DNA of 64,000 bases. Origin: an uncultured Chryseobacterium sp. (GTDB taxonomy: Bacteria > Bacteroidota > Bacteroidia > Flavobacteriales_F > PHOS-HE28). This document shows, piece by piece, positions 5,550-61,855 of the stretch. The notes below the pieces were generated by a model, which was not told where the DNA came from, searched no databases, and worked only from the letters and a program-made list of their open reading frames with translations. How positions within the stretch are numbered: position 1 is the first letter of the stretch; each line of letters starts with the position of its first letter. The DNA is taken from assembly GCA_964649165.1 (NCBI GenBank), contig CAZYPC010000005.1, positions 16,533 to 80,532 of the forward strand. Direction: 5' to 3'. The position numbers and the translations under genes are program-made.

Positions 5550-5577
5550 TGGTGTCAGCACAGGAAACGTCGGAAGC

Positions 5578-11794: not shown

Positions 11795-11815
11795 GGCTGA
11801 GCTGTTTTGCCGCTG

Positions 11816-43639: not shown

Positions 43640-45271
43640 CTACTGCCGACGACCGTTGCTCAGAATGGTCACATGACCCGTATACGGTTCGGGGGAACTG
43701 TTCACCACCACTTCATAGAAGTAAGTGCCGTCACTGACATCATTCGCCGCCCACGTGTTCCTGTAATTGTTGGACTCGAAGACCATCTGCCCCCAGCGGT
43801 TGAAAATGCGGACCGTGTTCGTGGTCCCGAGTATGCCCTCGATAACGAAGCGGTCGTTCTCCCCATCGCCGTTCGGGCTGAACACGTTGGGGATCCCTAT
43901 CTCACAACCGCTGTTGACGGTGACCGTGGCGGTTCCCAGCTTTTCACACTCGTCACTAACCGTGAGACCGTAACTGCCGTTCACCAGGCCATAGGCGTAG
44001 AAAGCCGTGGAAGTGCCGCCACTGGTCCAGAGAAAGGAAAGATCACCGAAACCACCCGTGGCCTGCGCGGAGACAAGCACGCTGTCCTGATCGCAGTGGA
44101 GGAAAAGATCCTCCGCTGTGATGTCGATGGGCACATACTCCCGCACCAGCACGCTGGCGGTGCTGGTGGAAGTGTCACCGCAGGCGTTCACATAGACCGC
44201 GGTAAGCGTGATCTGTTCATCACCTTCCGGCGTGTTGTCCTCAAAAGCCTCCACCGGATAGGTCACGCTGTTCTGCCCTGCCGGGATCGTGATCACCGTC
44301 GGGATCTGCGTGTAGTCGGTGCCATTCGTCGCCGAACCGCCCACCTGCACGGTGATCTCCAGGTCCGATTGATCTCCAGGTCGTGAAATGGTGAAGGTCG
44401 CATCGGAGCATCCTTCGGTGAGCGTGCCGTCGGCGCTCGCGGTGACCAGCTCGAGTTCGACAGCATTAGGACTGCTGAAGCTGCCACCCTCCAGGAATAC
44501 ACTGCTATCCAGGATGGGATCACCGGCGTCAGCGATGGCGATCTTGATGTGATAAGGCTGGCCGCATTGCACCAAGGCCCGCGCTGTGAGCGGCACGGTG
44601 AATCCATCGAACTGGATGTACTGGGGATCGGCGTTGAACGGTGCCGTGAAACCATCCCCGTTGTCCACGTAGAACGCAGGGTTGGCCACATCGTTCACAT
44701 TGTCTATGGAGACGGGCTGAGAGGTGCCGGGCACCAAGGCGATATTGGCGGCATTGTTCGAGTACGGTCCGGAGATGCCAGGGCCGCTCAGGAAGAACCC
44801 GAACACGTCGTTGAAGCCCGCACTGACCCACTCAAGGTACTCTTCGGAGCCGAAGACATAGTTGAACCGGAGCGAATCGCCGGCAGGAACGAAATCGAAT
44901 TCCAGCACGGCCCGGTCGAACGTGGTGGAGTTGCTCGCGAGATCCAGGTCGGCATCATTGGGTCCTCCTGGAGTGCCCAGCGTGGCCGCACCATCGGCGT
45001 TAGGGCCCAGGGCCACCCCGATATCCCCGCTGCTCAGGGTAAGCCCCAGAGGGAGTCCGACATTGCAGGCCGTGCCATCGAAACTGCCGATCTGGATGTT
45101 GGTCTGGTCCGCCGGCTGCCCATTGAAGGTGATGTTGCTCACGGTGACACCACCACCGAGCAACACATCTTCAACAAGCTGCTGTACGGTAATGGTATTG
45201 TTCACCACGAGTTGGGCATGAGCGCCGGCGGCGGCTACTACCAGGACGGCGAATGTGGTATGACGGGTCAT
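43640..45271 (-). CDS. Surface protein paralogue A: choice-of-anchor-L-like head, one Calx-beta-like domain, one SprB-type Ig repeat and a CHU_C (T9SS type B) C-terminal domain
   Basis: 543 aa. Signal peptide MTRHTTFAVLVVAAAGAHAQ. Head blocks LEFDFVPAGDSLRFNYVFGSEEYLEW, FNDVFGFFLSGPGISGPYSNNA and DAGDPILDSSVFLEGGSF. Calx-beta-like GGSATNGTDY. Tail PNVFSPNGDGENDRFVI...IFNRWGQMVFES...GTYFYEV...GHVTIL (gliding-motility-associated C-terminal domain, TIGR04131 type). Confidence 0.85.
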   Translation of the reverse strand: MTRHTTFAVLVVAAAGAHAQLVVNNTITVQQLVEDVLLGGGVTVSNITFNGQPADQTNIQIGSFDGTACNVGLPLGLTLSSGDIGVALGPNADGAATLGTPGGPNDADLDLASNSTTFDRAVLEFDFVPAGDSLRFNYVFGSEEYLEWVSAGFNDVFGFFLSGPGISGPYSNNAANIALVPGTSQPVSIDNVNDVANPAFYVDNGDGFTAPFNADPQYIQFDGFTVPLTARALVQCGQPYHIKIAIADAGDPILDSSVFLEGGSFSSPNAVELELVTASADGTLTEGCSDATFTISRPGDQSDLEITVQVGGSATNGTDYTQIPTVITIPAGQNSVTYPVEAFEDNTPEGDEQITLTAVYVNACGDTSTSTASVLVREYVPIDITAEDLFLHCDQDSVLVSAQATGGFGDLSFLWTSGGTSTAFYAYGLVNGSYGLTVSDECEKLGTATVTVNSGCEIGIPNVFSPNGDGENDRFVIEGILGTTNTVRIFNRWGQMVFESNNYRNTWAANDVSDGTYFYEVVVNSSPEPYTGHVTILSNGRRQ

Positions 45272-45430
45272 TGGTCGGAGAGCTCCCTGCTGATGTCTTC
45301 CAGGCCGCTCCCTTCACTGACGGTCATCGAGGAACCAGCGACGCCCGGAACCTCAACGCCGGCATATATCAGCCATGGTGGACCTGAAGGGGGTGGAGCT
45401 GGACGACCCCATGGCCAGGTCACAAAAAGA

Positions 45431-45460
45431 AGCCCGCTTCCGCGGGCTTCTCACATTCAA
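45431..45460 (-). terminator. Rho-independent terminator downstream of paralogue B
   Basis: On the minus strand: gaagcccgc-ggaa-gcgggcttc, a perfect 9-bp stem, followed by TTTTTGTG. It begins about 10 nt after the stop at 45471. Confidence 0.75.
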
Positions 45461-45470
45461 GTTGACTGGA

Positions 45471-47678
45471 TCACGGACGCCGCGTGTTGCTCAGCACGGT
45501 GACGTGCCCGGTGTACGGATCAGGCTCGCGATCCACTTTCACTTCATAGAAGTAAGTACCATCAGGCAATCCGGGTGCACGCCAGTCGTTCTGGTAATTC
45601 TGCTTCTCATAGACCACCTGCCCCCAACGGTTGTAGATCCGGACGGTGCTCCGTGAGGCCAGGATGCCCTGGATAAAGAACACATCATTCTCCCCATCAC
45701 CATTGGGGCTGATGACGTTGGGAACGATGATGGCGCACTGCGGGTCGACGATGACATTGACGGAAGCGGTGTGTCCGCAATCATCGATCACCGAGACCTG
45801 GTAGGTACCATCGACCGAATTGGACGCATAGCTCACAGGGCCGATGTATCCATTGCTCCAGGATACCTGCAACGGGTCCACGCCACCCGAAGCATCGGCC
45901 GTCAACGGTATGCTATCAACACCACAAGGAATGATCAGCAACTCCTCCGTCGTGAGCTGGAGAGGTGGGGAGTCGACAATGAGGCTGTTCACGGTGTCGC
46001 TTACGACCTGTTGGCAGGCGTTACTGTAGCTGACCGCGATGGACAGTGGCTCAGCCCCTTCGTCCGAGTTGTCCTCGGTCGGCGCGATCTCGGCATTCAC
46101 GGTGCCGCTGCCCCCGGGTATGATCATCGGTTCGGGGAAGGGATAGTCACTACCGGCCTGGGCGGTGCCCAGATGCCCGATCGACACCAGCAGGTCACCA
46201 CTTGTACCGGAGGGACGGGTGATCACCAGGTTCGCGTTGTCACATCCCTCGATCAAGGGGTCGGGTCCGGTGAGTGTTGCGGTGATGGGCGGAGGGGGGG
46301 AAAGCTCGACAGCGAAGAAGCCCGTGGTCTGCACGCCACAGGTATCGGTCACTTGCACGTACACATCGCTCACGGTGGTGGGCGTGTAGTAAATGGAATC
46401 GGCTGTTTCACCCGTGGGGGTCCAAAGCAGGTTGTATGCTCCATACCCGCCGGTGACCGTGGGCGCGAGCTGCACGCTCTCTCCACAATCGATCATGAAC
46501 GCATCCCCGATGGCGATCAGCGGATCCGGTTCGTCGATGAAGAAGTGGAACGTGATCTCCAGGGAATCGGCCGCACAGGGAGACTCGGAGATCATGGTGA
46601 TATCGATGGTTTCCACATCATCCGCGTCGATCGGGGCGCTGAGGGAGAAGGGTATGGTCGTCTGGAACGGCGCGAAGTCGAGTTGCGTGGGGAAAGGCGG
46701 CGAGTAGTCCACCCCGGGAACAGCTGTACCGCCCACTTCGATGTTCACCGTAGCGGCGAAGGTGGAATCCCCGACGCGCGTGAAGAGGAAATCAACAGCG
46801 AAGCAGCTTTCCAGGATGGTATTGGCGCCAACGATGCCAGGTCCGGGCTGGAGGTCAGGAACGAACGGCGCGCTGGTGAAGCTCCCTCCTTCGAGGAATA
46901 CCACACTGTCGTAGGCGGTGTCCCCTGCATCGCCGACGGCGATCTTGATATGGTGCACTTCGCCGCAAGTGACCGCAGCACGGGCGGTCAGTCGCACGGT
47001 CATGCCATCGTATTGGACATACGTGGGATCGGTGCTGAAAGGCGTAGTGAAGCCATCCCCGTTGTTGACGTAGAACTCGGGGTAGGAGACATCGTTCACG
47101 TTGTTGATGGCGATCGCCTGGGTCGTTCCTGGAATGAGGGCGATATTGATGGAGTTGTTGCTGTAGGGACCATTGATGTTGGGACCGCTGAGGAAGAATC
47201 CGAAAACATCATTGAACGAGGAGTTCACGAACTCGAGGTACTCGTCAGAGCCGAACACGAAGTCGAACTGGATGGAGTCGCCGATGGGTATGAAGTCGAA
47301 CTCCAGCACGGCGGCGTCGTTGATGGTCGCATTACTCCCGATGGCCACCAGATCCGGGTCGGATTGACCGAACATGCCACCACCCGTGGTGCTGGCTCCG
47401 GCATCGTTAGGGCCCTCTGCATTCAGGACACTACCGGTGGCGAGCAGGATCCCGCTATCAATGCCCACGTTACAGTTGACGCCATTGAAGGAGCCAGCCT
47501 GTTCGGTGAGCGTGGTGCCGGGCAGACCGTTGAAGGTGATATTACTTACCTGTACGCCGGAGCCAAGGAGCACGTCTTGCACCAACTGCTCGGGAGTGAG
47601 GGTCTGGTCGATGACGATCTGTGCCCGGAGCCCGGTGGCGGCAAAAAGGCAGAGCAGTGTAATGGTCGACTTGTTCAT
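45471..47678 (-). CDS. Surface protein paralogue B: choice-of-anchor-L-like head, two Calx-beta-like domains, SprB-type repeats and a CHU_C tail
   Basis: 735 aa. Signal MNKSTITLLCLFAATGLRAQ. The same head blocks as A (LEFDFIPIGDSIQFDFVFGSDEYLEF, FNDVFGFFLSGPNINGPYSNNS). Calx-beta-like GGTAVPGVDY and GTAQAGSDY. The CHU_C tail is closest to paralogue A. Confidence 0.85.
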   Translation of the reverse strand: MNKSTITLLCLFAATGLRAQIVIDQTLTPEQLVQDVLLGSGVQVSNITFNGLPGTTLTEQAGSFNGVNCNVGIDSGILLATGSVLNAEGPNDAGASTTGGGMFGQSDPDLVAIGSNATINDAAVLEFDFIPIGDSIQFDFVFGSDEYLEFVNSSFNDVFGFFLSGPNINGPYSNNSINIALIPGTTQAIAINNVNDVSYPEFYVNNGDGFTTPFSTDPTYVQYDGMTVRLTARAAVTCGEVHHIKIAVGDAGDTAYDSVVFLEGGSFTSAPFVPDLQPGPGIVGANTILESCFAVDFLFTRVGDSTFAATVNIEVGGTAVPGVDYSPPFPTQLDFAPFQTTIPFSLSAPIDADDVETIDITMISESPCAADSLEITFHFFIDEPDPLIAIGDAFMIDCGESVQLAPTVTGGYGAYNLLWTPTGETADSIYYTPTTVSDVYVQVTDTCGVQTTGFFAVELSPPPPITATLTGPDPLIEGCDNANLVITRPSGTSGDLLVSIGHLGTAQAGSDYPFPEPMIIPGGSGTVNAEIAPTEDNSDEGAEPLSIAVSYSNACQQVVSDTVNSLIVDSPPLQLTTEELLIIPCGVDSIPLTADASGGVDPLQVSWSNGYIGPVSYASNSVDGTYQVSVIDDCGHTASVNVIVDPQCAIIVPNVISPNGDGENDVFFIQGILASRSTVRIYNRWGQVVYEKQNYQNDWRAPGLPDGTYFYEVKVDREPDPYTGHVTVLSNTRRP

Positions 47679-47720
47679 TGGAAAATGCCGCTTCCGGCAC
47701 TTGGGTTGATCATTGTCATC

Positions 47721-50366
47721 CTATTCGGCATCCGAAGCGCTCAGCAGGGTCACATGCCCGTATCCCTCCTGTGAGGGGAACAAGTGACCTGCCGCTTTGA
47801 ATTTGTAAACGTACACACCAGTGACCGGATCGGCACCACCCACCTTCCCATCCCAGGGCTTGTTGACATCCTCGGTGCTGTACACCAGCTGGCCCCAACG
47901 GTCGTACACGCTCATCTCGAACTGCTCGATGTAGCGCGTACCGGGGCCGAACATCTCGTTGATCCCGTCCCCGTCCGGGGTGAAGGCATTGGGGAAGAAC
48001 AACTGCCCGGGAGGCCGGATCAGCACGCTATCCTCGGCCGTGCAGCCCGTGTGGGTCACCACCGACAGCTTCACCCAATGCTCCTCCAGGTCCAGATAGC
48101 TGTGCGCCAGGGTCCGCTCACGGCTCAGCGTCCCATCACCCAGGTCCCAGCGATAGCTCCGGCAGAAGGTCGGTAGCGTCGCCGCCTCGAACACCCAGTC
48201 ATCCTGGCCAGCGTTCGTCGCTTCGATATGCACCACCGGCTGCTCCACCCCCACATTCACCTCATCACTGATCATCTCCCCGCACTGGTCGTAGATCTTC
48301 ACCCGGTACTGCGCGTTCACCTCAGGACCCACCATCAACTGCGGATCGCTATGGTCCTGATCCACCCATTCGATCGTGTAGTACCCGGAGCCCCCGCCCA
48401 CCTGGGCCCATAGCTGAAGACTGTCACCAAGGCACAGCACCGTGTCCTTGGTCAGGTCCACCGTGAAGGGCGCCGGATGGGGGATCAGTGAATAGACCGC
48501 CTCCACCGCCTCATTGCCGCACTGGTCCCGCACCGTCAGGGTGTATACCGCATCGGCCGGTACCCCCACCTGAAGTGTGTCCTGAAGGCTCACCGTCTGC
48601 TGCTCGCTGTTGGTCCATTCGTAGGTGTACACACCGTTCCCCCCAGTTACCCCCAGCACCTCCAGGGTCGTGGTGTCGCCCAGGCAGATCACCGTCCGGT
48701 CCGGAGCATCCACAACGATGCTCTCCAAAGGCACCGTACCCACCTCCACCGAGTCAGTCACCGTGCTGCCGCAGCCGTCGGTCACCGTGGCCACATAGAA
48801 CACGTTCGGGTTCGCCGCCGGTACGTTGATCGTCGAGGTGCTCCCGGCGGACGCTCCGCTGAGCGTCCAGCCGTAGCTGTACTCACCATTACCCCCTGTG
48901 GCCGAGGTCACCGCGATGTCCCCGTTGCCCAGGCAGTCGATCAGCGTCAAGGGGCTCACCTCCATGGTCAGCGCTGGGTACACCGGGATCGTTACCGTGA
49001 TGCTGTCGCTCACCGCCTCCACGCCGCAGGTGTCCGTCACCGTGAAATGGTACACCGTGGTCTCTCCGGGCGCCACCTCGATCGTGAAGCTCTCCTCTCC
49101 GGTATCCCACAGGATCTCCTTCTCGCTCGTCCCGCCGGTGATCTCAGGCGTCAATACGTATGAACCCCCACAATCCCCCATCACATCCGACGTCACGATC
49201 AACAGGGGGGCGTGCTGGTCGATATACAGGGTATAGTCATTCACCACTTGTGAACCGCTGCAAACGATGTTCTGGGCGATGGTAATGGTTACGGTCTCCA
49301 AGCCATCCGGATCAAGTGGGATATTCACGGGCCAGGGGATCAGGGTGTCACCCGCCTGGTAGATGAGCTGCACCGGGAAAGCGGGGAAATAATCCACGCC
49401 GCCTGTTGCGGTGCCTCCGATCACGATATTGACCGTATCGATATTGGTCGTGTCACCATATCTGTGGAAGGCGAGTGGAACGATGCCGCAGCCTTCGAAG
49501 AGTGTGCTGTCATTCGCCCCGATGCCATCGCCTACAAGTTCAGGAATGACCTGCCCTGTGCTCGTGAAACTTCCCGCTTGGAGGAAAACGGCGCTGTCCC
49601 AAGCGGTGTCCGAAGCATCCCCCAGGGCGATCTTGATGTGGTAGGTCAGGCCGCAGGTCACTTGGGCACGGGCGGTCATCACCACGGTCAAGCCGTCATA
49701 CTGGACGTACTGAGGGTCCGAATTGAACGGGGCTGTGGACCCGTCGCCGTTATCGACATAGAACGCCGGATTCACGGTGCTGTTCACATCGTTGATGGTG
49801 ACGGGTTGCGTGGTGCCCGGGACCAAAGCGATGTTGATCGCGTTATTGGCGTAGATGCCGCTGATGCCGGGGCCGCTGACGAAGAACCCGAAAGCGTCGT
49901 TCACGCTGTTCACGAACTCCAGGTACTCATCCGAACCGAAAATGAAGTCGAACTTCAGGGAATCCCCCGTTGGCACGAAATCGAACTCGAGGATGGCCGC
50001 GTCGTTGATGGAAGGATTCCCCGAAAGCAGGACCAGGTCGGGGTCGCTCGCACCGAAGTTGCCACCACCCAAGCCACTACTACCGCTGCTGTTCGGGCCT
50101 TGGGCGTTATTGATGTCGCCCGTGGCGAGCACCACGCCTTGATCGATCCCGAGGAACGTATTGGTCGCATCGAACCCTCCGATCTGCTCATTCAGGATGG
50201 TACCCGGCTGACCATTGAAGGTGATGTTGGAGACCGTCACACCAGACCCCAAGAGGATATTCTCGACCGCTTGTTGGGGGGTGATGGTGCTGTTCAGAAC
50301 GATCTGGCCCGAAGACAGGGCAGGAACCAGCGCTAGGGAGAGGGTAAACAGGAGATATGAACGCAT
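47721..50366 (-). CDS. Surface protein paralogue C: choice-of-anchor-L-like head, Calx-beta-like domain, four SprB-type repeats, a PKD-like domain and a CHU_C tail
   Basis: 881 aa. Signal MRSYLLFTLSLALVPALSSGQ. Head blocks as above. SprB-type motif IDCLGNGDIAVTSATGGNGEYSYGW. PKD-like YRWDLGDGT...HSY. Tail FFPNAFTPDGDGINEMF...VYDRWGQLVYS...GVYVYKF...GHVTLL. Confidence 0.85.
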   Translation of the reverse strand: MRSYLLFTLSLALVPALSSGQIVLNSTITPQQAVENILLGSGVTVSNITFNGQPGTILNEQIGGFDATNTFLGIDQGVVLATGDINNAQGPNSSGSSGLGGGNFGASDPDLVLLSGNPSINDAAILEFDFVPTGDSLKFDFIFGSDEYLEFVNSVNDAFGFFVSGPGISGIYANNAINIALVPGTTQPVTINDVNSTVNPAFYVDNGDGSTAPFNSDPQYVQYDGLTVVMTARAQVTCGLTYHIKIALGDASDTAWDSAVFLQAGSFTSTGQVIPELVGDGIGANDSTLFEGCGIVPLAFHRYGDTTNIDTVNIVIGGTATGGVDYFPAFPVQLIYQAGDTLIPWPVNIPLDPDGLETVTITIAQNIVCSGSQVVNDYTLYIDQHAPLLIVTSDVMGDCGGSYVLTPEITGGTSEKEILWDTGEESFTIEVAPGETTVYHFTVTDTCGVEAVSDSITVTIPVYPALTMEVSPLTLIDCLGNGDIAVTSATGGNGEYSYGWTLSGASAGSTSTINVPAANPNVFYVATVTDGCGSTVTDSVEVGTVPLESIVVDAPDRTVICLGDTTTLEVLGVTGGNGVYTYEWTNSEQQTVSLQDTLQVGVPADAVYTLTVRDQCGNEAVEAVYSLIPHPAPFTVDLTKDTVLCLGDSLQLWAQVGGGSGYYTIEWVDQDHSDPQLMVGPEVNAQYRVKIYDQCGEMISDEVNVGVEQPVVHIEATNAGQDDWVFEAATLPTFCRSYRWDLGDGTLSRERTLAHSYLDLEEHWVKLSVVTHTGCTAEDSVLIRPPGQLFFPNAFTPDGDGINEMFGPGTRYIEQFEMSVYDRWGQLVYSTEDVNKPWDGKVGGADPVTGVYVYKFKAAGHLFPSQEGYGHVTLLSASDAE
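47844..49154 (-). repeat. Copy 1 of a 1311-bp perfect direct repeat (inside paralogue C)
   Basis: Line-by-line comparison shows 47844-49154 is identical to 50627-51937 (offset 2783). The first mismatches lie immediately outside both ends (47843 vs 50626; 49155 vs 51938). Confidence 0.9.
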
Positions 50367-50506
50367 CGATGCTTCCGGGAAAAGCGCCGGAAGATAGCCC
50401 CCCGGACCACAGCTTGACCGAATGCCGGCCGGGCAGGTTGCCTGAAGCCCCCGTTCCTCATCAACTTGGGCAGATAGACCGGTCTTTTGCCCTGAATGTT
50501 CGGGAC

Positions 50507-53176
50507 CTAATCGTCAGACCCACGCAACAAGGTCACGTGCCCAAAGCCCTCTTGCGAAGGGAACAGGTGCCCTACAGCCCGGTACTTGAACACATAAACG
50601 CTGGTGGGGGCTTCCGTACCGTCGATCTTCCCATCCCAGGGCTTGTTGACATCCTCGGTGCTGTACACCAGCTGGCCCCAACGGTCGTACACGCTCATCT
50701 CGAACTGCTCGATGTAGCGCGTACCGGGGCCGAACATCTCGTTGATCCCGTCCCCGTCCGGGGTGAAGGCATTGGGGAAGAACAACTGCCCGGGAGGCCG
50801 GATCAGCACGCTATCCTCGGCCGTGCAGCCCGTGTGGGTCACCACCGACAGCTTCACCCAATGCTCCTCCAGGTCCAGATAGCTGTGCGCCAGGGTCCGC
50901 TCACGGCTCAGCGTCCCATCACCCAGGTCCCAGCGATAGCTCCGGCAGAAGGTCGGTAGCGTCGCCGCCTCGAACACCCAGTCATCCTGGCCAGCGTTCG
51001 TCGCTTCGATATGCACCACCGGCTGCTCCACCCCCACATTCACCTCATCACTGATCATCTCCCCGCACTGGTCGTAGATCTTCACCCGGTACTGCGCGTT
51101 CACCTCAGGACCCACCATCAACTGCGGATCGCTATGGTCCTGATCCACCCATTCGATCGTGTAGTACCCGGAGCCCCCGCCCACCTGGGCCCATAGCTGA
51201 AGACTGTCACCAAGGCACAGCACCGTGTCCTTGGTCAGGTCCACCGTGAAGGGCGCCGGATGGGGGATCAGTGAATAGACCGCCTCCACCGCCTCATTGC
51301 CGCACTGGTCCCGCACCGTCAGGGTGTATACCGCATCGGCCGGTACCCCCACCTGAAGTGTGTCCTGAAGGCTCACCGTCTGCTGCTCGCTGTTGGTCCA
51401 TTCGTAGGTGTACACACCGTTCCCCCCAGTTACCCCCAGCACCTCCAGGGTCGTGGTGTCGCCCAGGCAGATCACCGTCCGGTCCGGAGCATCCACAACG
51501 ATGCTCTCCAAAGGCACCGTACCCACCTCCACCGAGTCAGTCACCGTGCTGCCGCAGCCGTCGGTCACCGTGGCCACATAGAACACGTTCGGGTTCGCCG
51601 CCGGTACGTTGATCGTCGAGGTGCTCCCGGCGGACGCTCCGCTGAGCGTCCAGCCGTAGCTGTACTCACCATTACCCCCTGTGGCCGAGGTCACCGCGAT
51701 GTCCCCGTTGCCCAGGCAGTCGATCAGCGTCAAGGGGCTCACCTCCATGGTCAGCGCTGGGTACACCGGGATCGTTACCGTGATGCTGTCGCTCACCGCC
51801 TCCACGCCGCAGGTGTCCGTCACCGTGAAATGGTACACCGTGGTCTCTCCGGGCGCCACCTCGATCGTGAAGCTCTCCTCTCCGGTATCCCACAGGATCT
51901 CCTTCTCGCTCGTCCCGCCGGTGATCTCAGGCGTCAACACGTACGACCCCCCGCAGTCTCCCATCACATCAGACGTCGCGATCTCAATGGGTGAGAAATC
52001 ATCGATGTAGAAGAGATACTCGTTCACGACCTGTGTGCCGCTACAAACGATGTTCTGCGTGATCGTGATGATGAGCGTCTCCAGGCCATCGGCATCCAAG
52101 GGGACGTTCAACGGGTACTCGATCATCGTGTCCCCTTCATAGTAAATGAACTGGGAAGGGATGGCGGGGAAATAATCCACCCCCGGGGTGGCCGTTCCAC
52201 TGACCACGATGCTCACCGTGTCTACGTTGGTCGTGTCTCCCATGCGGTGGAAATAGAAGGGGACGAGCCCGCAGCCTTCGAACATCGTACTGTCGTTCGC
52301 ACTTACCTCACCGACGGTGAGCGAAGGGATGACCTGACCTGTGCTCGTGAAGCTTCCCGCTTCCAGGAAAACGCCGGAGTCCAGCACATGGTCGCCTGCA
52401 TCAGCGAGAGCGAGCTTGATGTGGTATTGCACACCGCACTCCACGATCGCCCGCGCTTCGAGGATGGCCGTCATCCCGTCGAATTGGTTGCATTGGACAT
52501 CCGTGCTCCATGGGGTCGTGAAGCCATCGCCGTTGTCCACGTAGTAGTCGGAGTTCATCCCGTCGTTCACGTTGTTGATGCTCACCGGCTGGGACGTGCC
52601 CGGCACCAAGGCGATATTCTCGGCGTTGTTGGTGTAGGGACCCGATATCCCCGGCCCGCTCAGGAAAAAACCGAAGATGTCGTTGTAGGAAGAGTTCACG
52701 AACTCCAGGTATTCTTCGGAGGCGAAGACGTAGCGGAACTTCAGCGTGTCACCCGTTGGAATGAAGTCGAACTCGAGCACCGCAGCGTCATAGGACGGGT
52801 TCGGCGAGGCGATGTCGTCGAGGTCGATATCTCCCCCGAGGTTCAACCCGCCGGCAGGTAGTGTATTGCCACTCGTGGTGTTCGGGCCGAGAACGGTGTT
52901 CACTTCGCCGCAGGCCATGAACACACCATTCGTCAGTCCGATGTTGCCCAAGGGAACGCCGACATTCGACAAGGTGCCGTCAAACTCCGCAGCTTGCACG
53001 AATACCTGGTTCCCCGGCTGTCCGTTGAAGGTGACATTGCTGGCCGTAACCCCCGCACCGAGCAGTACGTTCTCCAGCAGTTCGGTAACGGTGAGTGAAT
53101 TGTCGACGGCTATCTGGCCAGTAAGGACCATTGGCGAGAACATGGAACCGACGATCAGCAGGCGAAGAGCGCTCAT
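50507..53176 (-). CDS. Surface protein paralogue D: same architecture as C with a diverged head and an identical stalk
   Basis: The start was moved to the ATG at 53176 (MSALRLLIVGSMFSPMVLTGQ). The 108 codons upstream in the track ORF are Arg/Gly-rich and lack a signal peptide. By eye, residues ~414-850 are identical to C residues ~405-841, the head is only roughly half identical to C, and the last ~40 residues are also diverged. Confidence 0.85.
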   Translation of the reverse strand: MSALRLLIVGSMFSPMVLTGQIAVDNSLTVTELLENVLLGAGVTASNVTFNGQPGNQVFVQAAEFDGTLSNVGVPLGNIGLTNGVFMACGEVNTVLGPNTTSGNTLPAGGLNLGGDIDLDDIASPNPSYDAAVLEFDFIPTGDTLKFRYVFASEEYLEFVNSSYNDIFGFFLSGPGISGPYTNNAENIALVPGTSQPVSINNVNDGMNSDYYVDNGDGFTTPWSTDVQCNQFDGMTAILEARAIVECGVQYHIKLALADAGDHVLDSGVFLEAGSFTSTGQVIPSLTVGEVSANDSTMFEGCGLVPFYFHRMGDTTNVDTVSIVVSGTATPGVDYFPAIPSQFIYYEGDTMIEYPLNVPLDADGLETLIITITQNIVCSGTQVVNEYLFYIDDFSPIEIATSDVMGDCGGSYVLTPEITGGTSEKEILWDTGEESFTIEVAPGETTVYHFTVTDTCGVEAVSDSITVTIPVYPALTMEVSPLTLIDCLGNGDIAVTSATGGNGEYSYGWTLSGASAGSTSTINVPAANPNVFYVATVTDGCGSTVTDSVEVGTVPLESIVVDAPDRTVICLGDTTTLEVLGVTGGNGVYTYEWTNSEQQTVSLQDTLQVGVPADAVYTLTVRDQCGNEAVEAVYSLIPHPAPFTVDLTKDTVLCLGDSLQLWAQVGGGSGYYTIEWVDQDHSDPQLMVGPEVNAQYRVKIYDQCGEMISDEVNVGVEQPVVHIEATNAGQDDWVFEAATLPTFCRSYRWDLGDGTLSRERTLAHSYLDLEEHWVKLSVVTHTGCTAEDSVLIRPPGQLFFPNAFTPDGDGINEMFGPGTRYIEQFEMSVYDRWGQLVYSTEDVNKPWDGKIDGTEAPTSVYVFKYRAVGHLFPSQEGFGHVTLLRGSDD
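50627..51937 (-). repeat. Copy 2 of the 1311-bp perfect direct repeat (inside paralogue D)
   Basis: See copy 1. The tract is in frame in both genes and encodes four SprB-type repeats, the PKD-like domain and the first part of the CHU_C domain. Confidence 0.9.
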
Positions 53177-53310
53177 GGGTTTGCGCTGGTTGGTGGAAGG
53201 GCGAGGGAAATTACAGCATATACCACCAGTTGACCACCCCGACCGGGCTGTGGTTGCCTGCCGTTGGCCGACGGTCAACAACTTCTCCCTTCCGTGGCCG
53301 GAAAAAGTGA

Positions 53311-53346
53311 TGTCCCGACCGTGGGTGGCCGGGACATGCTGAAGAG
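53311..53346 (-). terminator. Candidate Rho-independent terminator downstream of paralogue E
   Basis: On the minus strand: atgtcccg-gccacccacggt-cgggacat, followed by CACTTTTTCC. It starts about 13 nt after the stop at 53359. Confidence 0.5.
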
Positions 53347-53358
53347 GGATCCTGGGGG

Positions 53359-55896
53359 TCAGTTCGACGCTTCCTCGTCGCCCAGCAGCGTAACGTGCCC
53401 GAGGCCTTTCGTCTCCTCCAGCCGCTCTCCCGCAGCGCGGAAACTGTACACGTACACGCCGGTCGGGGCCGTTTCGCCATTCTTCATCTCCCCATTCCAC
53501 GTAGCCCCGACCCCAGAGACGGCGGCCACTTCAGCGCCCCAACGGTCGAAGATCACGAGCTCGAACTCCTCCAGCAGTACGCCTACGGCACCGAAGGTGT
53601 CGTTGATCCCATCGCCGTTCGGGGTGAAGGCATTCGGGAAGAACAGCTGGGCTGCCGGCGTAAGGGCGATGGTGTCGATGGCCGGGCAACCGTTGGCTGT
53701 AAGTGTCTGCACGGTAACGATGGTCGGTTGCATATCCGCGTAGGCATGCTCCGGGGCCGAAGAAGTGCTGGTATTCCCGTCCCCGAAGCTCCAGGCAAAG
53801 TCCACCGCCGCAGGGAGGCTGTGCGTGCTGAAGGCGAAGTCGTTGAACCCGATGGACTCGGCCAGGATCGTCGTCACCGGATGTTCGATGCCCACATGCG
53901 CGTCCGCACCGACCGTGGTACCACAGAGGTCCGTTACACTCACCGCATAGGACGTCGGGACGGTCGGAGCCACGGTCACAGCGCTGTCCGCACCCGAAAA
54001 AGCAGGCCAATTGTATGCGTACGTGCCTGCGCCGCCGGTCGCCACAGCGATCAGCTCCCGGCTGCCGCCTTCGCACACCATGGCATCGGCCAGGTGCAAC
54101 GCTAGCGGGGCATGGTCGGCGATGGACAAGGTAACCTGCGCGGAACCTGTGTGGCCGCAATTGTCCGTGGCGGTCAGCGTGTAGGTCTGGCTGCCGTTCA
54201 CAGGGACGTTGAAGCTGCTCGCATCACCGATGGTGGTTCCGTCCGCATCCGTCCAAGTCTGCATGAAGACTCCGGTTCCGCCGGTAATCCCGAGCACTTC
54301 GGCACCGGCGTTCTGTCCAGGGCAGATCACGGTGGTGTCCGGGGTCAAGGCGATCACGATGGCATCGTAGGACTGTTGGGTCGTAGTCACGGTGGTCGTA
54401 GCCGATGCGCCGCAACCATTGGTCACGGTCACGGTGTATTCTGCAGGCTCGTTCGTGATGTCCAAGGTCTGTGTGGTTCCCACCGTTATACCGGCATTGG
54501 TCCAGAGATAGGCCACACCCTCCGTGTCTCCATTGACCGTAACGGCCAGGGTGCCGCCGTTCCCATCGCAAGGCATGGGCGCTGGTTGGGTCACTGAGAG
54601 GGTGATCGGCGCCACGGTGCTGTTCACCAGGGTCGAGTCAACTACGACCGCACCGCAGGCATCGCTTACCGATGCAACGAACCAGGTCGGCTCAGTGGGG
54701 GGAGCGATGGTCACCTCGGAGGTTGTGCTGAGTACGGCGCCATTGCTGCTCCACGAAAGCTCATGGTCACCAGCGCCGAGTTGGGCCAAGGTCATGGACA
54801 AGGTGCCTTGCTCGCCGCAGGCGATACCAAGCGTGCTGGGCACGTTCAGTTGCGGAGGCACGGTGGAAACGTTCACCGAATCGGTCGCTGTCGCACCGCA
54901 TTCATCCGTTACCGTAGCCACATACCAGGCGCTTCCGTTGGCGGTGACCGGGAGGCTGGTACCGGTTCCCACGGTCGTTCCGTTGGAGCTCCAGGTGACA
55001 TCCGCACCGGGCAGCCCGAATACTTCAACTTGTCCTTCGCCCAGACAAGGGAGCGCGAGGTCTGCGGTCAAACTCAGCGTGGGCGCGGTGCTCGTGAAAG
55101 CCCCGGCCTGCAGGAACACAGCGGAGTCGTACAACTCATCGGTCACGTCGCCGATGGCCAGTTTGATATGGTAGGTCTGTCCGCACTGCACGGCATGGCT
55201 CGCGGTAATGGCGGTCGTGAGGCCATCGTACTGGACATAGTCCACACTGCTGTTGTAAGGAGCGGAGAACCCGTCGCCGTTGTCCACATAGTAGGCCGGG
55301 TTGCTGATGTTGTTGACGTTGTCGATCGTCACCGGCGTGGACGTCCCCGGGACCAAAGCGATGTTCACCGCGTTGTTGCTGTACGGGCCGCTGATGCCGG
55401 GGCCGCTCAGGAAGAATCCGAAGGCATCGTTGAAGCCGGCATACACGAACTCGAGATACTCCTCGGAAGCGAAAACGAAGTTGAAGGAGATGGCCCCGCC
55501 CGTGGGCACGAAATCAAACTCCAGCACTGCCGCGTCCAGAACCGTGGTTCCCGCGATCGATGACAGGTCCGCGTCCGAAGTTCCCGTAAAACCACCCTGT
55601 GTGGCATTGTCCAAGGTATTCGGGCCGTAGGCGACCGTGGCGTCACCGGTAGCGAGCATCAGACCGCTCGGCATACCCACGTTGGCATATGCACTGTTGA
55701 ATGAGGCCGCCTGCGGGCTGATGGAGCCCCCTGGCTGACCATTGAACATGATGTTGCTCACGCTGACCCCGCCACCAAGGAGCACGTTCTGTACAAGTGC
55801 CGAGGGCGACTGGCTATTGTCCACCGAGATCTGGGCCGAGGCCAGGAGTGGCAGGATCGCGATGCTGATCAGGGCGGAGCGTAGTTGACGGGTCAT
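53359..55896 (-). CDS. Surface protein paralogue E: choice-of-anchor-L-like head, multiple SprB-type Ig repeats, a PKD-like domain and a CHU_C tail
   Basis: ATG at 55896 (MTRQLRSALISIAILPLLASAQ). Head blocks LEFDFVPTGGAISFNFVFASEEYLEF and FNDAFGFFLSGPGISGPYSNNA. Repeats with LPCLGEGQVEV... and ...VTDECGATATDSVNVS. PKD-like FAWSFGDGNT...HAY. Tail FFPNAFTPNGDGINDTF...IFDRWGAEV...GVYVYSF...GHVTLL. Confidence 0.85.
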   Translation of the reverse strand: MTRQLRSALISIAILPLLASAQISVDNSQSPSALVQNVLLGGGVSVSNIMFNGQPGGSISPQAASFNSAYANVGMPSGLMLATGDATVAYGPNTLDNATQGGFTGTSDADLSSIAGTTVLDAAVLEFDFVPTGGAISFNFVFASEEYLEFVYAGFNDAFGFFLSGPGISGPYSNNAVNIALVPGTSTPVTIDNVNNISNPAYYVDNGDGFSAPYNSSVDYVQYDGLTTAITASHAVQCGQTYHIKLAIGDVTDELYDSAVFLQAGAFTSTAPTLSLTADLALPCLGEGQVEVFGLPGADVTWSSNGTTVGTGTSLPVTANGSAWYVATVTDECGATATDSVNVSTVPPQLNVPSTLGIACGEQGTLSMTLAQLGAGDHELSWSSNGAVLSTTSEVTIAPPTEPTWFVASVSDACGAVVVDSTLVNSTVAPITLSVTQPAPMPCDGNGGTLAVTVNGDTEGVAYLWTNAGITVGTTQTLDITNEPAEYTVTVTNGCGASATTTVTTTQQSYDAIVIALTPDTTVICPGQNAGAEVLGITGGTGVFMQTWTDADGTTIGDASSFNVPVNGSQTYTLTATDNCGHTGSAQVTLSIADHAPLALHLADAMVCEGGSRELIAVATGGAGTYAYNWPAFSGADSAVTVAPTVPTSYAVSVTDLCGTTVGADAHVGIEHPVTTILAESIGFNDFAFSTHSLPAAVDFAWSFGDGNTSTSSAPEHAYADMQPTIVTVQTLTANGCPAIDTIALTPAAQLFFPNAFTPNGDGINDTFGAVGVLLEEFELVIFDRWGAEVAAVSGVGATWNGEMKNGETAPTGVYVYSFRAAGERLEETKGLGHVTLLGDEEASN

Positions 55897-56321
55897 GGCG
55901 TTTGCGTTTCGATGGGCCAAAGCACCGGAGTTGTGGCGGGCTGGTCCTGCGGGAACGAGCAACTGGCGGTATATCCCGCACTACTGGAGGCTATCCGACC
56001 TTCCGACCGACCGTGCCACCTGAAGCCCGCGCCTGGCGGGGACTTCAGGCATGACCCTCAAGGTCCCTTCCGATGGGTCCGAAAGGCTCTCGGACCTCTT
56101 CCATATCCCCCATCTTAGGGATGGTCATGGGGAGCAACTGGCGAGCACGTCCCAAGACCTCGGAATGGTGGCTTCGGAAAGTTTCTTGCCCTGCGTCGAC
56201 CCGATCGGGGCTCAAGCTGCCAGAACGGTGGGCAACGGTTCAGCGGCCGTGTTCGGAGGGGGGATATCTTCGGCACCCCCGAAAGCGCGCGACCGAACCG
56301 CGCCTGGCGGCCAGCCCACCG

Positions 56322-57692
56322 ATGAGCACGACCGACGCCTATATCGAGACCAACAAGGATCGTTTTCTGAACGAACTGCTCGACCTGTTACGGATCCCCA
56401 GCGTGAGCGCTGACCCGAAGTACAAGAGCGACGTCGCCCGGTGCGCGGAAGCGGTGAAGCAGCGCCTGGTGGAGGCCGGTGCGGACAAGGTGGAGATATG
56501 CCCCACGGCCGGCCACCCGATCGTGTACGGCGAAAAGCTCATCGACCCCAAGAAGCCGACCGTGCTCGTCTATGGACATTATGATGTGCAGCCCCCCGAC
56601 CCCCTCGACCTCTGGCATTCACCGCCATTCGAGCCTGTGATCAAGGAGGGCATGATCTACGCGCGCGGCAGCGCCGACGACAAAGGCCAGTTCTTCATGC
56701 ACGTGAAGGCCTTCGAGGCGATGATGAAGACGGGTTCCCTCCCGTGCAATGTGAAGTTCATGATCGAGGGCGAGGAAGAGGTCGGCAGCGACAATCTGGG
56801 AACCTTCGTCAAGAACAACAAGGCCCGCCTGAAGGCGGACGTGGTGTTGATCAGCGATACGGCCATGATCGCCAATGATGTGCCCAGCATCAACACCGGC
56901 CTACGCGGACTCAGCTACCTGGAGGTGGAAGTGGTCGGACCGAACCGTGACCTCCATAGCGGGGTTTATGGAGGTGCCGTGGCGAACCCGATCAACACCC
57001 TGTGCGCGATGATCGCAAGCCTGCACGATGCGGATGGTCGCGTGAACGTTCCGGGATTTTATGACGCGGTGGTCGAGTTGTCGGCTGCGGAGAGGAAGGC
57101 CCTGGCCGAGGCGCCCTTTGATGAGAAGGAATGGATGAAGGACCTCGGCGTGAACGCCGTCAAGGGCGAAAAGGGTTACACCACGGACGAACGTTGTACC
57201 ATCCGCCCAACGCTGGATGTGAACGGCTTCTGGGGTGGCTATATCGGTGAAGGTGCCAAGACGGTGCTGCCGAGCAAGGCGTTCGCGAAGCTCAGCATGC
57301 GCCTGGTCCCGAACCAGAAGAGCGATGCGATCACCAAGTTGTTCAAGGACCACTTCGAGAAGATCGCGCCGCCCTATGTGAAGGTCACTGTGCGCCCTCA
57401 CCATGGGGGAGAAGCGGCGGTGACGCCAATTGACAGCCCGGCATACCTCGCGGCCAGCAAAGCGATGGAAGAGACCTTCGGCAAGAAGCCCATTCCCACA
57501 CGAGGAGGGGGCAGCATTCCCATCGTGGCCCTCTTCGAAGAGGAACTGGGATTGAAGACCGTGCTGTTCGGTTTCGGCCTGGATAGCGACAACATCCACA
57601 GCCCGAACGAGAAGTACGGCATCTTCAACTACATGAAAGGTATCACCACCATCCCGCGCTTCTTCAAGCACTACGCGGCGATGGCACGCTGA
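56322..57692 (+). CDS. M20-family dipeptidase (ArgE/DapE/CNDP-like metallopeptidase)
   Basis: ATG at 56322 (MSTTDAYIETNKDRFLNELLDLLRIPSVSADP). VLVYGHYDVQP, ARGSADDKGQ and MIEGEEEVGS are M20 metal-ligand blocks. The upstream part of the track ORF (from 56073) is not family-like. Confidence 0.88.
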   Translation: MSTTDAYIETNKDRFLNELLDLLRIPSVSADPKYKSDVARCAEAVKQRLVEAGADKVEICPTAGHPIVYGEKLIDPKKPTVLVYGHYDVQPPDPLDLWHSPPFEPVIKEGMIYARGSADDKGQFFMHVKAFEAMMKTGSLPCNVKFMIEGEEEVGSDNLGTFVKNNKARLKADVVLISDTAMIANDVPSINTGLRGLSYLEVEVVGPNRDLHSGVYGGAVANPINTLCAMIASLHDADGRVNVPGFYDAVVELSAAERKALAEAPFDEKEWMKDLGVNAVKGEKGYTTDERCTIRPTLDVNGFWGGYIGEGAKTVLPSKAFAKLSMRLVPNQKSDAITKLFKDHFEKIAPPYVKVTVRPHHGGEAAVTPIDSPAYLAASKAMEETFGKKPIPTRGGGSIPIVALFEEELGLKTVLFGFGLDSDNIHSPNEKYGIFNYMKGITTIPRFFKHYAAMAR

Positions 57693-58246: not shown

Positions 58247-58837
58247 TCAACGCTTCGGCGGCACATAGGTCGGCTCGCTCCATCCCATCACCACGAAACC
58301 AAGGGCGCCTTCCGATAGTCGTAGTACGCTGAACTGCCGGTCGCTAACGGAAGCAGGCGGTTCCATCGCCACGGCATCCCCGGGGGCAGCGGTCGTTATC
58401 GCTGGCATTTCGCCGTGCTCCACCCAATAGTTCTTGAGCCCGAGCCCGCTGATCGGTTCGCGCACGATGAAGGCATGTTCATCCGAGGTGAAAAGGGCGT
58501 TCACAGCGAAAAGCACGCAGAACAGGAAGGGGCCGATGGCCAGCAGGTTGAACATGAACCAGTACGACCGCGACATTCCGAAGACCCGCTCCACCCACCT
58601 TCCGAACACCAGGTTGCCGGCGAACGCGCACGCGCAGAAAATCCGCACGACCACCCAGTAGGTGACGAGCACCGCACTGGCCACCCACCAGAATGCGACG
58701 ATCATGGAGAAAAGGCCGATCAGCATGAGCCAGATGGGCCACTGCCGGGCGTCATCATCGTCAACGCGGCGCTGTTGACCCGCGAGCTGCCTCCACGTAC
58801 GCGGCCGGGCCCGCACAACGTTCCTTTGATCGCCCAT
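58247..58837 (-). CDS. Hypothetical integral membrane protein (about 4 TM segments)
   Basis: The ATG at 58837 ([17 protein letters not shown]...) precedes hydrophobic helices ([32 protein letters not shown]..., [20 protein letters not shown]). The track start at 58942 would overlap the divergent gene by about 100 nt. No family recognised. Confidence 0.5.
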
Positions 58838-60956
58838 GTCGTTCGCCAAGCTATCCGGTATCGCGCTTGCCTCCGGCACGATGCTGGTGCCAGGGTGCGG
58901 ATCGACGAACGGCGGCAACGGCACCACCGACCAGGATACCATGCACGCTCATACCAACCGCCTCAGCCAGGAGAGCAGTCCCTACCTCTTGCAGCACGCG
59001 CACAATCCGGTGGATTGGTACCCTTGGGGAGACGAGGCGTTCGCGAAAGCGAAGGCGGAGAACAAGCTCGTGCTGGTCAGCATCGGTTACAGCAGCTGTC
59101 ATTGGTGCCATGTGATGGAGCGGGAGAGTTTCGAGAACGACAGCGTGGCCAAGGTGATGAACGAGCACTTCGTCTGTATCAAGGTGGACAGGGAAGAGCG
59201 GCCCGATGTGGATCAGATCTACATGGCTGCGGTGCAACTGATGACCGGTCGTGGCGGTTGGCCCTTGAACTGCTTCACCCTGCCTGATGGGCGCCCTGTC
59301 TACGGAGGAACCTATTTCCCACCGGAACAGTGGAAACAGCTGCTGAGCGACCTGAACGCGACATGGAAGACCGACCCGAAGAAAGTGACAGGATATGCGG
59401 AACGCCTCCATCAGGGGGTCCGCGAGAACGATCTGGTACAAGTGAACACGACACCGCCGGACTTCACCCGAAAGCAGGTATCCCGGTCGGTGCAGGTGAT
59501 GGACAGCACGTTCGACCGCACGGATGGGGGCATGGACCACGCTCCCAAATTCCCCATGCCGAACAACTGGCAGTTCCTGCTCAGATATGGGCGTCTCGCC
59601 AATGACACGAACGTGGGTGCTCAGGTGCATCTCACCCTGCACAAGATGGCCCTGGGTGGCATCTATGATCAGATCGGGGGCGGCTTCGCCAGATACAGCG
59701 TCGATGGCCTGTGGAAAGTGCCGCACTTCGAGAAAATGCTCTACGACAACGCACAGCTCATCTCACTCTACTGCGAAGCCTACCGTGCCGTGAAGGATCC
59801 GCTGTACAAGGATGTCGTGGAACGGACATTGGGCTTCATCGAACGGGAGATGATGAGCACTGAAGGGGCGTGCTATAGCGCGCTTGATGCCGACAGCGAA
59901 GGAGAGGAGGGCCGGTTCTATGTGTGGACCAAGGAAGAGCTCCAGCGCGTGCTCGGTCAGGACTTCGCTTTCGCGGAAAAATACTACTCCATCGGTCGAT
60001 CCGCAGCCTGGGAGCACGGAACGAACATACTGCTCCGCGAGGGCGATGACGCGTTCATGGCCCGGCAGCTGGGTCTTTCCGAGGAAGATGTGAGGATCCG
60101 GGCAGCGCGCGTGAACGACCTGCTCATGAAGGCACGCTCCGAACGTGTACGCCCCGGACTGGACGACAAATCGCTCACCAGTTGGAACGCGTTGATGGTG
60201 ATGGCCTGGTGTGAAGCCTACGTCTCCCTGGGCGACGAACGATCACTTGAGCACGCGCGCAGGACCATGGACCTGGTCCTCGGCACATGCCGCCGTGCCG
60301 GGGGTGGGATATCACACAGCTACAAAGGCGGCAAGGCCTCGATCAACGGCTACCTCGAAGACTACAGTTTCAGCATCGAAGCGCTGCTCGCCTTGTACTC
60401 CGTCACCTTCGAGGAACGCTGGATCACGGAGGCGCGGGCGTTGGCCGATCATGCGATCGCGCACTTCCTGGACCGTTCGACGGGCATGTTCTGGTTCACC
60501 AGCGACCTGGACCCACCGCTCATCGCGAGGAAGTCCGAAGTGATGGACAACGTGATCCCCTCGAGCAACAGCAGCATGTGCAAGGCCCTGTTCATCCTCG
60601 GTCACCTGCTTGACGAGCAGGAGTATCTCAGCATCAGCACCGGTCAATTGAACAACGTCGAACCACGGATGGAGCATTATCCGTCGGGCTACGGGAACTG
60701 GATGCAGGCGATGCTCATGCGGGTCTACCCATGGTACGAGGTCGCGATAACCGGCCCGAAAGCGTTGGAGCTGCGCAAGGAGTTCGGTGCGCACTACGTG
60801 CCCAATGGGATTTTTCTTGGTGCCGTTGGAACCAGCCGGCTTCCCTTGCTCGCTGAAAAGACCCTGGGGGCGACAACGACCATTTTCGTCTGCGAGAACA
60901 AGGTCTGCCGGATGCCCGTGGGCTCCGTATCCGGCGCAATGGCTTTGATGGAATGA
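58836..60956 (+). CDS. Thioredoxin-domain protein of the YyaL/DUF255 (SPATA20-like) family with a C-terminal six-hairpin glycosidase-like domain
   Basis: Diagnostic N-terminal block [22 protein letters not shown]...[19 protein letters not shown]. The ATG at 58836 provides a lipoprotein-like leader ([11 protein letters not shown]). An alternative start is the ATG at 58941. Confidence 0.85.
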
Positions 60957-61855
60957 GGATGCGCGTCGCACTTTCAGCCCTTGTCGTGGTTTACGGGCAA
61001 CTCCACGCGCAAGTGCTTCGTATCGAGGCCGGGACGGAGGACCCGACCCTGTTGCATTTCAACGAGGCGTTCATCCAGCGGAACGGCATTCTCGGCATCG
61101 AAGGCCAGGGCAACATCAAGCGGGATGGCGAACCCATCCGCCAGAAGAATGAGCACTTCGCCTACCGCTTCGATCAAACGGGTCGTCTGGCGCTCTGCAA
61201 CGTGACGTACGGCCGGAACAACTCGCCTTGGGACACCTCCTCCGTGGCCTACGCTTACGATGCGCAGGGGCGCCTGCGCGAACAACAGCGCAATGATCGC
61301 AGCGGACGGTTCGCGCAACGGGACTCCCTCGACGCCGATGGCCGTTGTCTCAGACGTACCCATGTCCGGATACAGGAGCCAGTTACAGGGGGCTACGCCT
61401 CGATGCGCACCACGGAGACGGTGATCAGCGACGAACGCTTCACACACGTGGCCATCAACGACACCGCGCTGCGGACCACCTGGCACAATGAGCACGGACT
61501 CCCCTACAGAGAGCAGGTCTTCCACAAGGATCGCTGGGGCTATCTACGGGCGATCGATGACCGCAACATCATCACGGGTCGGCGCGGTGCGGTCACGTTC
61601 CGGTACGATGAGAAAGGCAGATTGGCGGAGCGCATCGAGCGTCCGGATCTTTCAGCATCGACCACGCGCAAGCACATCTGGCGCTATGACAACGCCGGGA
61701 ATGTGACGCTGTGCGACACATGGCGTGATGAACGGCAGACATCCCACGGGGAGTACCTTTACGAAGAGGGTTCACTGCTGCTGAAGGCGATCATCGCGAA
61801 GGACATGGAGACCGGTCTCATACACATCACGCGTTACACGACCGAACGACGATGA
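60953..61855 (+). CDS. Secreted hypothetical protein with YD/RHS-like repeats
   Basis: 300 aa. Signal [20 protein letters not shown]. Recurrent Y/F-x-Y/F-D-x-x-G-R/N-L/V motifs ([36 protein letters not shown]). ATGA overlaps with both neighbours. Confidence 0.6.

Follow-up and report, generated by a model that had tools for sequence, protein, structure and literature searches.

Concerted evolution, very probably by recurrent gene conversion, of an internal tract in two tandem genes for putative surface proteins of an uncultured Flavobacteriales bacterium

Introduction

How can two neighbouring genes differ strongly at both ends and yet share a long interior that is the same at every base? The question is raised by a 64,000-nucleotide stretch of contig CAZYPC010000005.1 (positions 16,533 to 80,532; assembly GCA_964649165.1) from an uncultured Chryseobacterium sp., hereafter called the window. 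It carries a tandem minus-strand array of five genes in the order E-D-C-B-A, and the middle members C and D contain the identical tract, in which an initial annotation of the window had seen a recent gene conversion or cassette exchange. By comparing the window with itself and with related genomes, we find that this internal tract is very probably kept identical, or nearly so, by recurrent interlocus gene conversion between C and D, that is, by concerted evolution.

An identical tract within two diverged genes

The two genes, the two copies of the tract and the segment between them are located as follows.

47721..50366, minus strand: gene C, 881 amino acids, with a putative signal peptide, a choice-of-anchor-L head, a Calx-beta-like middle domain, a stalk and a type-B C-terminal domain (CTD)
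50507..53176, minus strand: gene D, 889 amino acids from the ATG at 53176 (MSALRLL...), with the architecture of C and a different head
47844..49154, minus strand: homogenised tract, copy in gene C, codons 405-841, delimited by exact identity and by repeat and domain search
50627..51937, minus strand: homogenised tract, copy in gene D, codons 414-850, the same as the C copy at 1311 of 1311 bases
49155..50626, minus strand: unique 1472-nt segment between the tract copies, comprising the C middle domain, the C head, a 140-nt spacer and the D tail

The self-comparison of the window bears out the identity noticed in the initial annotation: the 1311-base match is the longest exact run at an offset of 2783. 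The alignment of C and D spans 2637 nt and contains 487 mismatches, none of which lies within the tract. When the alignment columns were shuffled (n = 2000), the longest run of matches was 63 nt, and the upper-bound P value for the observed run is about 1e-142. Beyond the tract, C and D agree at a fraction of 0.3-0.6 of their third positions. The synonymous divergence (dS, Nei-Gojobori) between paralogues is 1.5-1.8 over the flanks, and between C and D it is 1.7-1.8 in the head and the middle domain; in the tail it is saturated, with a proportion of synonymous differences (pS) of 0.95. Amino-acid identity of the encoded proteins is about 57% for the heads, about 70% for the middle domain and about 65% for the final 40 codons, in agreement with the half-identical heads and the differing tails of about 40 codons described earlier, for which both quoted peptides are exact. 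Among the ten pairs of paralogues within A-E, C and D alone share an exact match longer than 21 nt.

The tract is in frame in both genes, and its mapping onto codons and domains agrees with the placement and content first proposed. It contains four immunoglobulin (Ig)-like SprB-type repeats with the pattern C..G...GG.G.Y.Y.W...D.CG, whose starts are at residues 399, 478, 561 and 645, then a PKD-like domain and 51 residues from the start of the type-B CTD of the type IX secretion system (T9SS). Specifically, it takes in residues 791-841 of the CHU_C / type-B CTD (Pfam and NCBIfam domains), which spans residues 791-881, while the initial six residues of the first Ig-like repeat fall outside it.

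The tract groups by genome and its flanks by gene

A scan of species-representative genomes yielded 27 related loci, all from uncultured Bacteroidota: 25 metagenome-assembled genomes (MAGs), one single-cell genome and one genome derived from a public metagenome. Most are labelled Flavobacteriales, and several come from activated sludge or freshwater. The locus L001 (JAGODO010000009) is collinear with positions 45428-57686 of the window at 87% nucleotide identity and has counterparts of four array members, E', D', C' and B'. Its D' and C' also share an exact tract, here of 1373 nt (8379-9751 = 11159-12531), at the same position as in the window, and this tract differs from that of the window at 9.2% of nucleotides (dS 0.36, dN/dS 0.085). 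In a third genome, MAG_AAO_H125.21, the array is split at the repeat over two contigs. The contig L009 carries E', a D-position gene and the head and middle domain of C', and ends 141 nt into the second tract copy, which matches the first at 141 of 141 bases; the first 188 nt of the contig L014 are the end of the tract and agree with the L009 copy at 187 of 188 bases, after which come a C-type tail and B'. The L009 tract differs from that of the window by 18.8%. Orthologues of gene C are present in L001, in L009/L014 and in the more distant L002, which lacks D but carries E', C' and B'. When the related loci that were fetched were compared with themselves, a C/D-type pair appeared only in L001 and L009.

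Segment-wise distances and neighbour-joining trees reveal a mosaic. In the trees of heads, middle domains and tails, C pairs with C' and D with D', in keeping with orthology, and the tails form a C-type and a D-type clade; in the tree of the tract, sequences from the same genome cluster together. The distance (p-distance) between the C and D tracts is 0.000 within the window and 0.000 within L001, against 0.092 between these two genomes and 0.188 to L009. Similarly, the dS of the tract is 0 within genomes and 0.36-0.66 between them, where the tract differs at 9-19% of nucleotides and 6-16% of amino acids. Because synonymous sites are homogenised within genomes and diverged between genomes, the identity does not come from constraint on the protein. 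The flanks on both sides keep their orthologous relations, which marks the tract as an internal patch rather than part of a fresh duplication.

The gene-conversion reading of the initial annotation is therefore upheld, with a tract that is close to 100% identical within each genome and species-specific between genomes, set between old, orthologous flanks; the same comparison excludes an ancient, constrained tract. The window copies show 0 differences in 1311 positions where about 120 separate the window from L001, placing the last homogenisation in each lineage within roughly the final 2.5% of the divergence time of the two genomes (Poisson 95% bound). The conversion was not a single one, since it recurs in L001 and in L009/L014.

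Tract edges and the two tails

At its two ends the tract is bordered by the following segments.

47721..47843, minus strand: C-type tail, last 40 codons and stop, not converted, orthologous and under purifying selection
50507..50626, minus strand: D-type tail, last 39 codons and stop, not converted, with orthologues in L001 and, at the D position, in L009
49155..49193, minus strand: 5' edge zone in C, codons 392-404, with the same residues as D and 7 synonymous differences
51938..51976, minus strand: 5' edge zone in D, counterpart of C codons 392-404

In both the window and L009/L014 the tract stops, at its 3' edge, as soon as the ...KPWDGK codon (C codon 841) is complete, and in L001 it runs on for another 8 nt; beyond the WDGK codon, identity drops at once in L009/L014. 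The 5' edge is more variable: the window has it at codon 405 and L001 at codon 387, and in L009 identity climbs gradually across the middle domain, patchy from codon 391 and exact from codon 408. Abrupt boundaries had been described on both sides. This holds for the 3' edge; on the 5' gene side the 13-codon zone with its synonymous mismatches intervenes before identity falls to about 70%. In L001 the tract includes this zone, and in L009 it includes part of it. Two of the residues in the zone, S393 and M396, are common to C and D and differ from those in L001 (A and F) and L009 (T and S).

The edges are not site-specific, as the 5' edge varies by genome and the 3' edge of L001 is displaced by 8 nt. 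Immediately beyond the 3' edge the two genes agree at 34 of 60 positions (57%), and the longest exact match between C and D in the whole tail is 7 nt; just outside the 5' edge they agree at 44 of 60 positions, with exact runs of at most 17 nt. RecA needs roughly 20-30 nt of homology. Since the flanking exact matches fall below this need, the edges would most simply be homology-limited, that is, set by where usable homology ends.

The two types of tail are discrete, are conserved in at least four lineages and are under purifying selection. The C tail peptide, in particular, is identical in L001 despite a nucleotide divergence of 8%.

Together, these observations very probably reflect the following course. 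C and D are old tandem paralogues between whose direct copies non-reciprocal homologous recombination recurs, homogenising the 1.3 kb that comprise the stalk and the first half of the CTD. The conversion would presumably be RecA-dependent, taking place when gaps or breaks are repaired, either between sister chromosomes or inside a single chromosome, and it may depend on mismatch repair. Each conversion patch would start and stop within sequence similar enough for strand exchange, and would not reach the head and middle domain (about 70% identity) or the 40-codon tail (57% outside the edge, longest match 7 nt). Heads and tails go on evolving as separate orthologous lineages, and the process has run independently in at least three species since their divergence. 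The outcome is two heads and two extreme C-termini on one common stalk.

Heads and tails in other lineages

Several related loci combine heads and tails differently. In L009 the D-position gene (9647-12661) is orthologous to D of the window from about codon 244 onwards, including the middle domain, the tract and the D-type tail. Its head (codons 1 to about 240) is as far from the head of D as from that of any paralogue, at a p-distance of 0.39-0.42. As this head is non-orthologous and the remainder of the gene orthologous, the head has been replaced in one lineage. L030, a metagenome contig from a further species about 78% identical to L009, has one gene (3203-5866) between E' and B', in which the L009-type alternative head is joined to the tract and a C-type tail; an A-like head lies beyond B'. 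Recombination between the two tract copies would be expected to yield just such a gene, although loop skipping by the assembler or an ancestral single-gene state would explain it equally well. In L028 (15-2604), the tract and a D-type tail are followed by a longer spacer and then by a B-type head (91% nucleotide identity to the B' of L014). This arrangement is not derivable from E-D-C-B by simple tract-to-tract recombination. Additionally, P0002 and P0004 have tracts that are 99% identical and tails that differ; as they come from separate samples, they are uninformative on a single population.

Alternative explanations

A tract without a single difference between its copies raises the question of whether the assembly itself is at fault, with copies that are really diverged or single and an identity produced by repeat collapse, consensus merging or a chimeric join. 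The relatives are MAGs, and L001 is a SPAdes-style contig at 8x coverage. A protein search with the tract gave matches of at most 87% identity, mostly fragments on metagenome contigs of 1-2.6 kb, which indicates that the repeat troubles assemblers. Two of four short contigs checked (L028 and L043) start in the 5' edge zone, an anecdotal count, as L029 starts mid-tract and L044 has low coverage; the single gene of L030 possibly reflects loop skipping. However, three assemblies from different projects agree in structure and differ in the sequence of the tract, which is specific to each species, and the junction of D tail and C head is found on single contigs in the window, L001 and L009. Because the unique 1472-nt segment is contiguous between the copies, two tract copies stand in tandem on one molecule. 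Moreover, a de Bruijn graph would not merge copies that differ by 9% or more, and the L009/L014 copies, although on separate contigs, still agree at 187/188 and 141/141 positions. We thus regard an artefact as very unlikely. The near-identity of the copies is secure; the zero differences are not, and to this extent the caveat about assembly raised in the initial annotation holds. Concerted evolution would stand as a conclusion even if the copies were not exactly identical, because copies about 9% diverged would not collapse.

The biological alternatives fare differently against the same comparisons. The absence of differences in the window is the expected trace of one very recent conversion or segmental replacement in this genome only, with no ongoing process, but L001 and L009/L014 are homogenised too, and their tracts, 9-19% apart, require that each lineage, once separate, was homogenised at least once and each time between almost the same bounds. 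As homogenisation is needed in each of three lineages, we reject a one-off event in this genome as highly improbable. Extreme purifying selection on an ancient common stalk, acting without recombination, would suit a stalk that is structurally repetitive and a CTD core (FFPNAFTPDGDG...DRWGQ) conserved family-wide; it is refuted by synonymous sites that are identical within genomes and diverged between them, together with the amino-acid divergence given above. The heads, with a dN/dS of 0.02-0.03, are under stronger protein constraint than the tract, yet their synonymous sites are saturated between paralogues. Direct repeats of 1.3 kb lying 1.5 kb apart are good substrates for unequal crossing-over, and L030 resembles a deletion product, so that cycles of deletion and re-duplication of the 2783-bp unit, instead of patch conversion, might be thought to homogenise the copies. 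Re-duplication would also make heads and tails identical, however, and the C and D flanks are saturated in dS and orthologous across three species. As heads and tails remain old and orthologous, unequal crossing-over is not the main mechanism, and we give it very little chance. Programmed cassettes, a shufflon or a diversity-generating retroelement (DGR) were considered and rejected: there are no silent donors, no inverted repeats (0), no mismatches between the copies and no recombinase or reverse-transcriptase domain in the scanned open reading frames (ORFs). Cassette exchange in the programmed sense, one of the two processes first invoked, is accordingly not borne out, as both genes are complete.

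A different kind of alternative is a selected combinatorial system, in which the stalk serves as a platform for reassorting heads against tails, the size of the array varies and selection keeps the tails distinct. It draws on the non-orthologous head at the D position in L009 and L030, on the L030 gene with D*-type head and C-type tail directly before B, on the D-type tail directly before B in L028, and on the presence or absence of gene A between close relatives. The conservation of two discrete tail types across at least four lineages and the 3' edge at the same codon in three species also favour it. Nevertheless, all variants of head and tail are differences between species or single short metagenome contigs, no within-population variants were observed, no dedicated machinery was found among the scanned ORFs, and neutral homology-limited conversion with ordinary gene gain and loss accounts for the data. 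We therefore consider such a system unlikely. Its fuller form, a combinatorial adhesin locus in which the stalk is upheld by selection as well as by mechanics and heads are re-paired with two functionally distinct CTD tails, seems to us a little less likely still. If true, the locus would generate surface variation at the population level in an environmental lineage of Bacteroidota, with genes being fused or re-expanded, and the two tails might, for example, address different T9SS sorting or anchoring partners. Head and tail shuffling and deletion of 2.8 kb, both raised in the initial annotation, are thus suggested by L009, L030 and L028 and unproven, as no within-population variant was observed.

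Recurrent conversion between C and D remains the explanation that we favour, and several observations weigh against it. The 3' edge stays at one codon across three species (8 nt off in L001), where a neutral edge is expected to erode inward; for this reason, selection keeping the tails distinct may contribute. The pS of the tract between the window and L001 is also lower than simple neutral concerted evolution predicts. A short-read assembler that crosses one graph edge twice prints identical copies and hides a few real single-nucleotide differences, and L009/L014 do show 1 difference in 188 nt. Finally, no long-read assembly with both copies was found, and the long-read MAG L003 (a 'tig' contig) has one such gene.

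As to the low pS, the value for the tract between the window (47844-49154) and L001 (11213-12523) is 0.285 +/- 0.026, about 40% lower than in seven other genes (0.42-0.49); the heads and middle domains of C and D give 0.39-0.46. The effect is moderate, since some 145-codon windows of other genes have a pS as low as the tract. The GC content at third positions (GC3) of the tract is 0.85, compared with 0.64-0.78 in the flanks of the window and 0.67-0.83 in those of L001. The low synonymous divergence may come from GC-biased conversion or from later exchange between lineages. A check of GC-biased conversion gave mixed signals from single-copy relatives, and the polarised substitutions are mostly S>W.

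The array and its encoded proteins

The remaining members of the array are the following.

53359..55899, minus strand: gene E, upstream member, with a choice-of-anchor-L head, a different stalk and a type-B CTD, not converted
45471..47678, minus strand: gene B, array member, not converted
43640..45271, minus strand: gene A, array member, the shortest (543 amino acids)

Gene A is absent from the syntenic site of L001, where B' is followed by about 80 nt and then by the flank on the gpmI side. The ORF listed for gene D begins at a GTG at 53500, 108 codons upstream of the ATG (53177-53500), and overlaps the 3' end of E. Dissimilar to the other array members and placed ahead of the putative signal peptide, the extension is probably spurious and not translated.

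Each of the five genes encodes a choice-of-anchor-L head, a variable middle or stalk and a T9SS type-B sorting domain. The heads match NF038133 with 233-244 bits (cut-off 27) over profile positions 2-219 of 219, and the type-B CTD is recognised in all five by TIGR04131 (41-50 bits, cut-off 35) and PF13585 (51-84 bits, cut-off 27). The array translations begin with hydrophobic N-termini that, as seen by eye, end in ...SSGQ, ...LTGQ or ...ASAQ. AlphaFold models the head of C as a beta-sandwich (predicted local distance difference test, pLDDT, 76.5; predicted template modelling score, pTM, 0.82). The fold search of this model against the PDB gave weak, generic beta-sandwich matches to modules that bind ligands, such as MAM, CBM28/61/16 and the Kgp K2 cleaved adhesin, none at E <= 0.001; a sequence search of the head against the PDB gave no match, and the literature searched contained no mention of the choice-of-anchor-L domain. 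Look-ups of the exact C and D proteins gave no recorded match. C and D are probably secreted, surface-attached, adhesin-like proteins.

The array is adjoined by gpmI on one side and by an M20 peptidase gene on the other, with a histidine kinase among the near neighbours, and the surrounding chromosome carries purH, mreBC, PBP2, rodA and RND (resistance-nodulation-division) efflux genes. Scanning ORFs of the window against Pfam revealed neither a recombinase nor a reverse transcriptase or mobile element, and none of the ORFs scanned was sprF-like; the 64 kb of the window contain 0 inverted repeats. A scan for sigma-70 promoters and terminators gave counts equal to the shuffled expectation, and only the hairpin after gene E looks real. 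This terminator-like hairpin (53310-53337, minus strand) has an 11-bp stem with 7 GC pairs and a T-run and lies just past the stop of E; no comparable hairpin follows D or C. Owing to this difference, D and C, perhaps with B, may be co-transcribed.

Two further observations concern other genes. In L019 (240-3257), a Sphingobacteriales MAG, tandem segments of 1.45 kb that are 89.7% identical lie in one or more choice-of-anchor-L-headed genes, and this pair may be another partial homogenisation in the choice-of-anchor-L family. In the window, an ORF with an RHS-repeat match (60953-61855) adjoins a DUF255/thioredoxin-like gene (58836-60956) and bears no relation to the tract.

Discussion

Our data describe concerted evolution of part of a gene in T9SS surface proteins of uncultured activated-sludge Flavobacteriales, with three species as natural replicates and with sharp bounds for donor and recipient. 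The head, the stalk and the extreme C-terminus behave as separately evolving modules, and phylogenies or dN/dS scans of such genes need segment-by-segment treatment. For this protein family, such tracts also disrupt or mislead both the assembly of metagenomes and the calling of orthologues. In addition, the two discrete, conserved types of the last 40 residues of the type-B CTD give a hint about the role of that part of the secretion signal.

Among known systems, programmed cassette systems resemble C and D in that recombination changes part of a surface-protein gene. Neisseria pilE/pilS, Borrelia vlsE, shufflons and DGRs diversify an expressed gene by means of silent or partial donors, site-specific inversion or mutagenic reverse transcription. 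In C and D, by contrast, two complete genes are made the same and there are no silent cassettes. The tufA and tufB genes of Salmonella and Escherichia coli, whose two copies are inverted, provide the mechanistic reference; as in C and D, recombination keeps two copies near-identical in the long term. Conversion tracts between Salmonella tufA and tufB start anywhere and extend until homology ends (PMC5485169), a finding with which homology-limited edges of the C/D tract would agree. There, however, the whole gene is homogenised and the distant copies have the same function, whereas in C and D it is an internal module of two functionally different tandem genes.

The rgpA, kgp and hagA genes of Porphyromonas gingivalis carry identical adhesin repeats within and between genes of one genome, which trouble assemblers (PMC5266723). 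They are like C and D in belonging to the same phylum, in encoding T9SS cargo and in joining different N-terminal modules to common ones. They differ in having type-A CTDs, dispersed loci, haemagglutinin/cleaved-adhesin domains and protease heads, as against the type-B CTD, tandem arrangement and choice-of-anchor-L heads of C and D, and the work on them was not aimed at species-by-species concerted evolution with fixed bounds. The closest in behaviour are babA/babB and homA/homB of Helicobacter pylori, as both these and the C/D system show concerted evolution of part of a gene. According to the account in PMC3960876, citing Pride & Blaser 2002, the 3' segment is alike within a strain, and the 5' and middle ligand-binding parts keep their own lineages. 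The bab and hom genes undergo RecA-dependent intragenomic gene conversion, and chimeric genes occur (PMC3960876). These conversions were shown experimentally, while those between C and D are deduced from sequence comparison. The bab and hom loci are dispersed and C and D tandem; the homogenised part of bab and hom is the C-terminal beta-barrel end itself, whereas the last 40 codons of C and D are excluded; and the route of secretion differs, with C and D being T9SS type-B cargo. The process is well known and C and D are a clear new example of it, set apart from the known systems by the tandem genes, the excluded extreme C-terminus and tract bounds that are conserved across three species.

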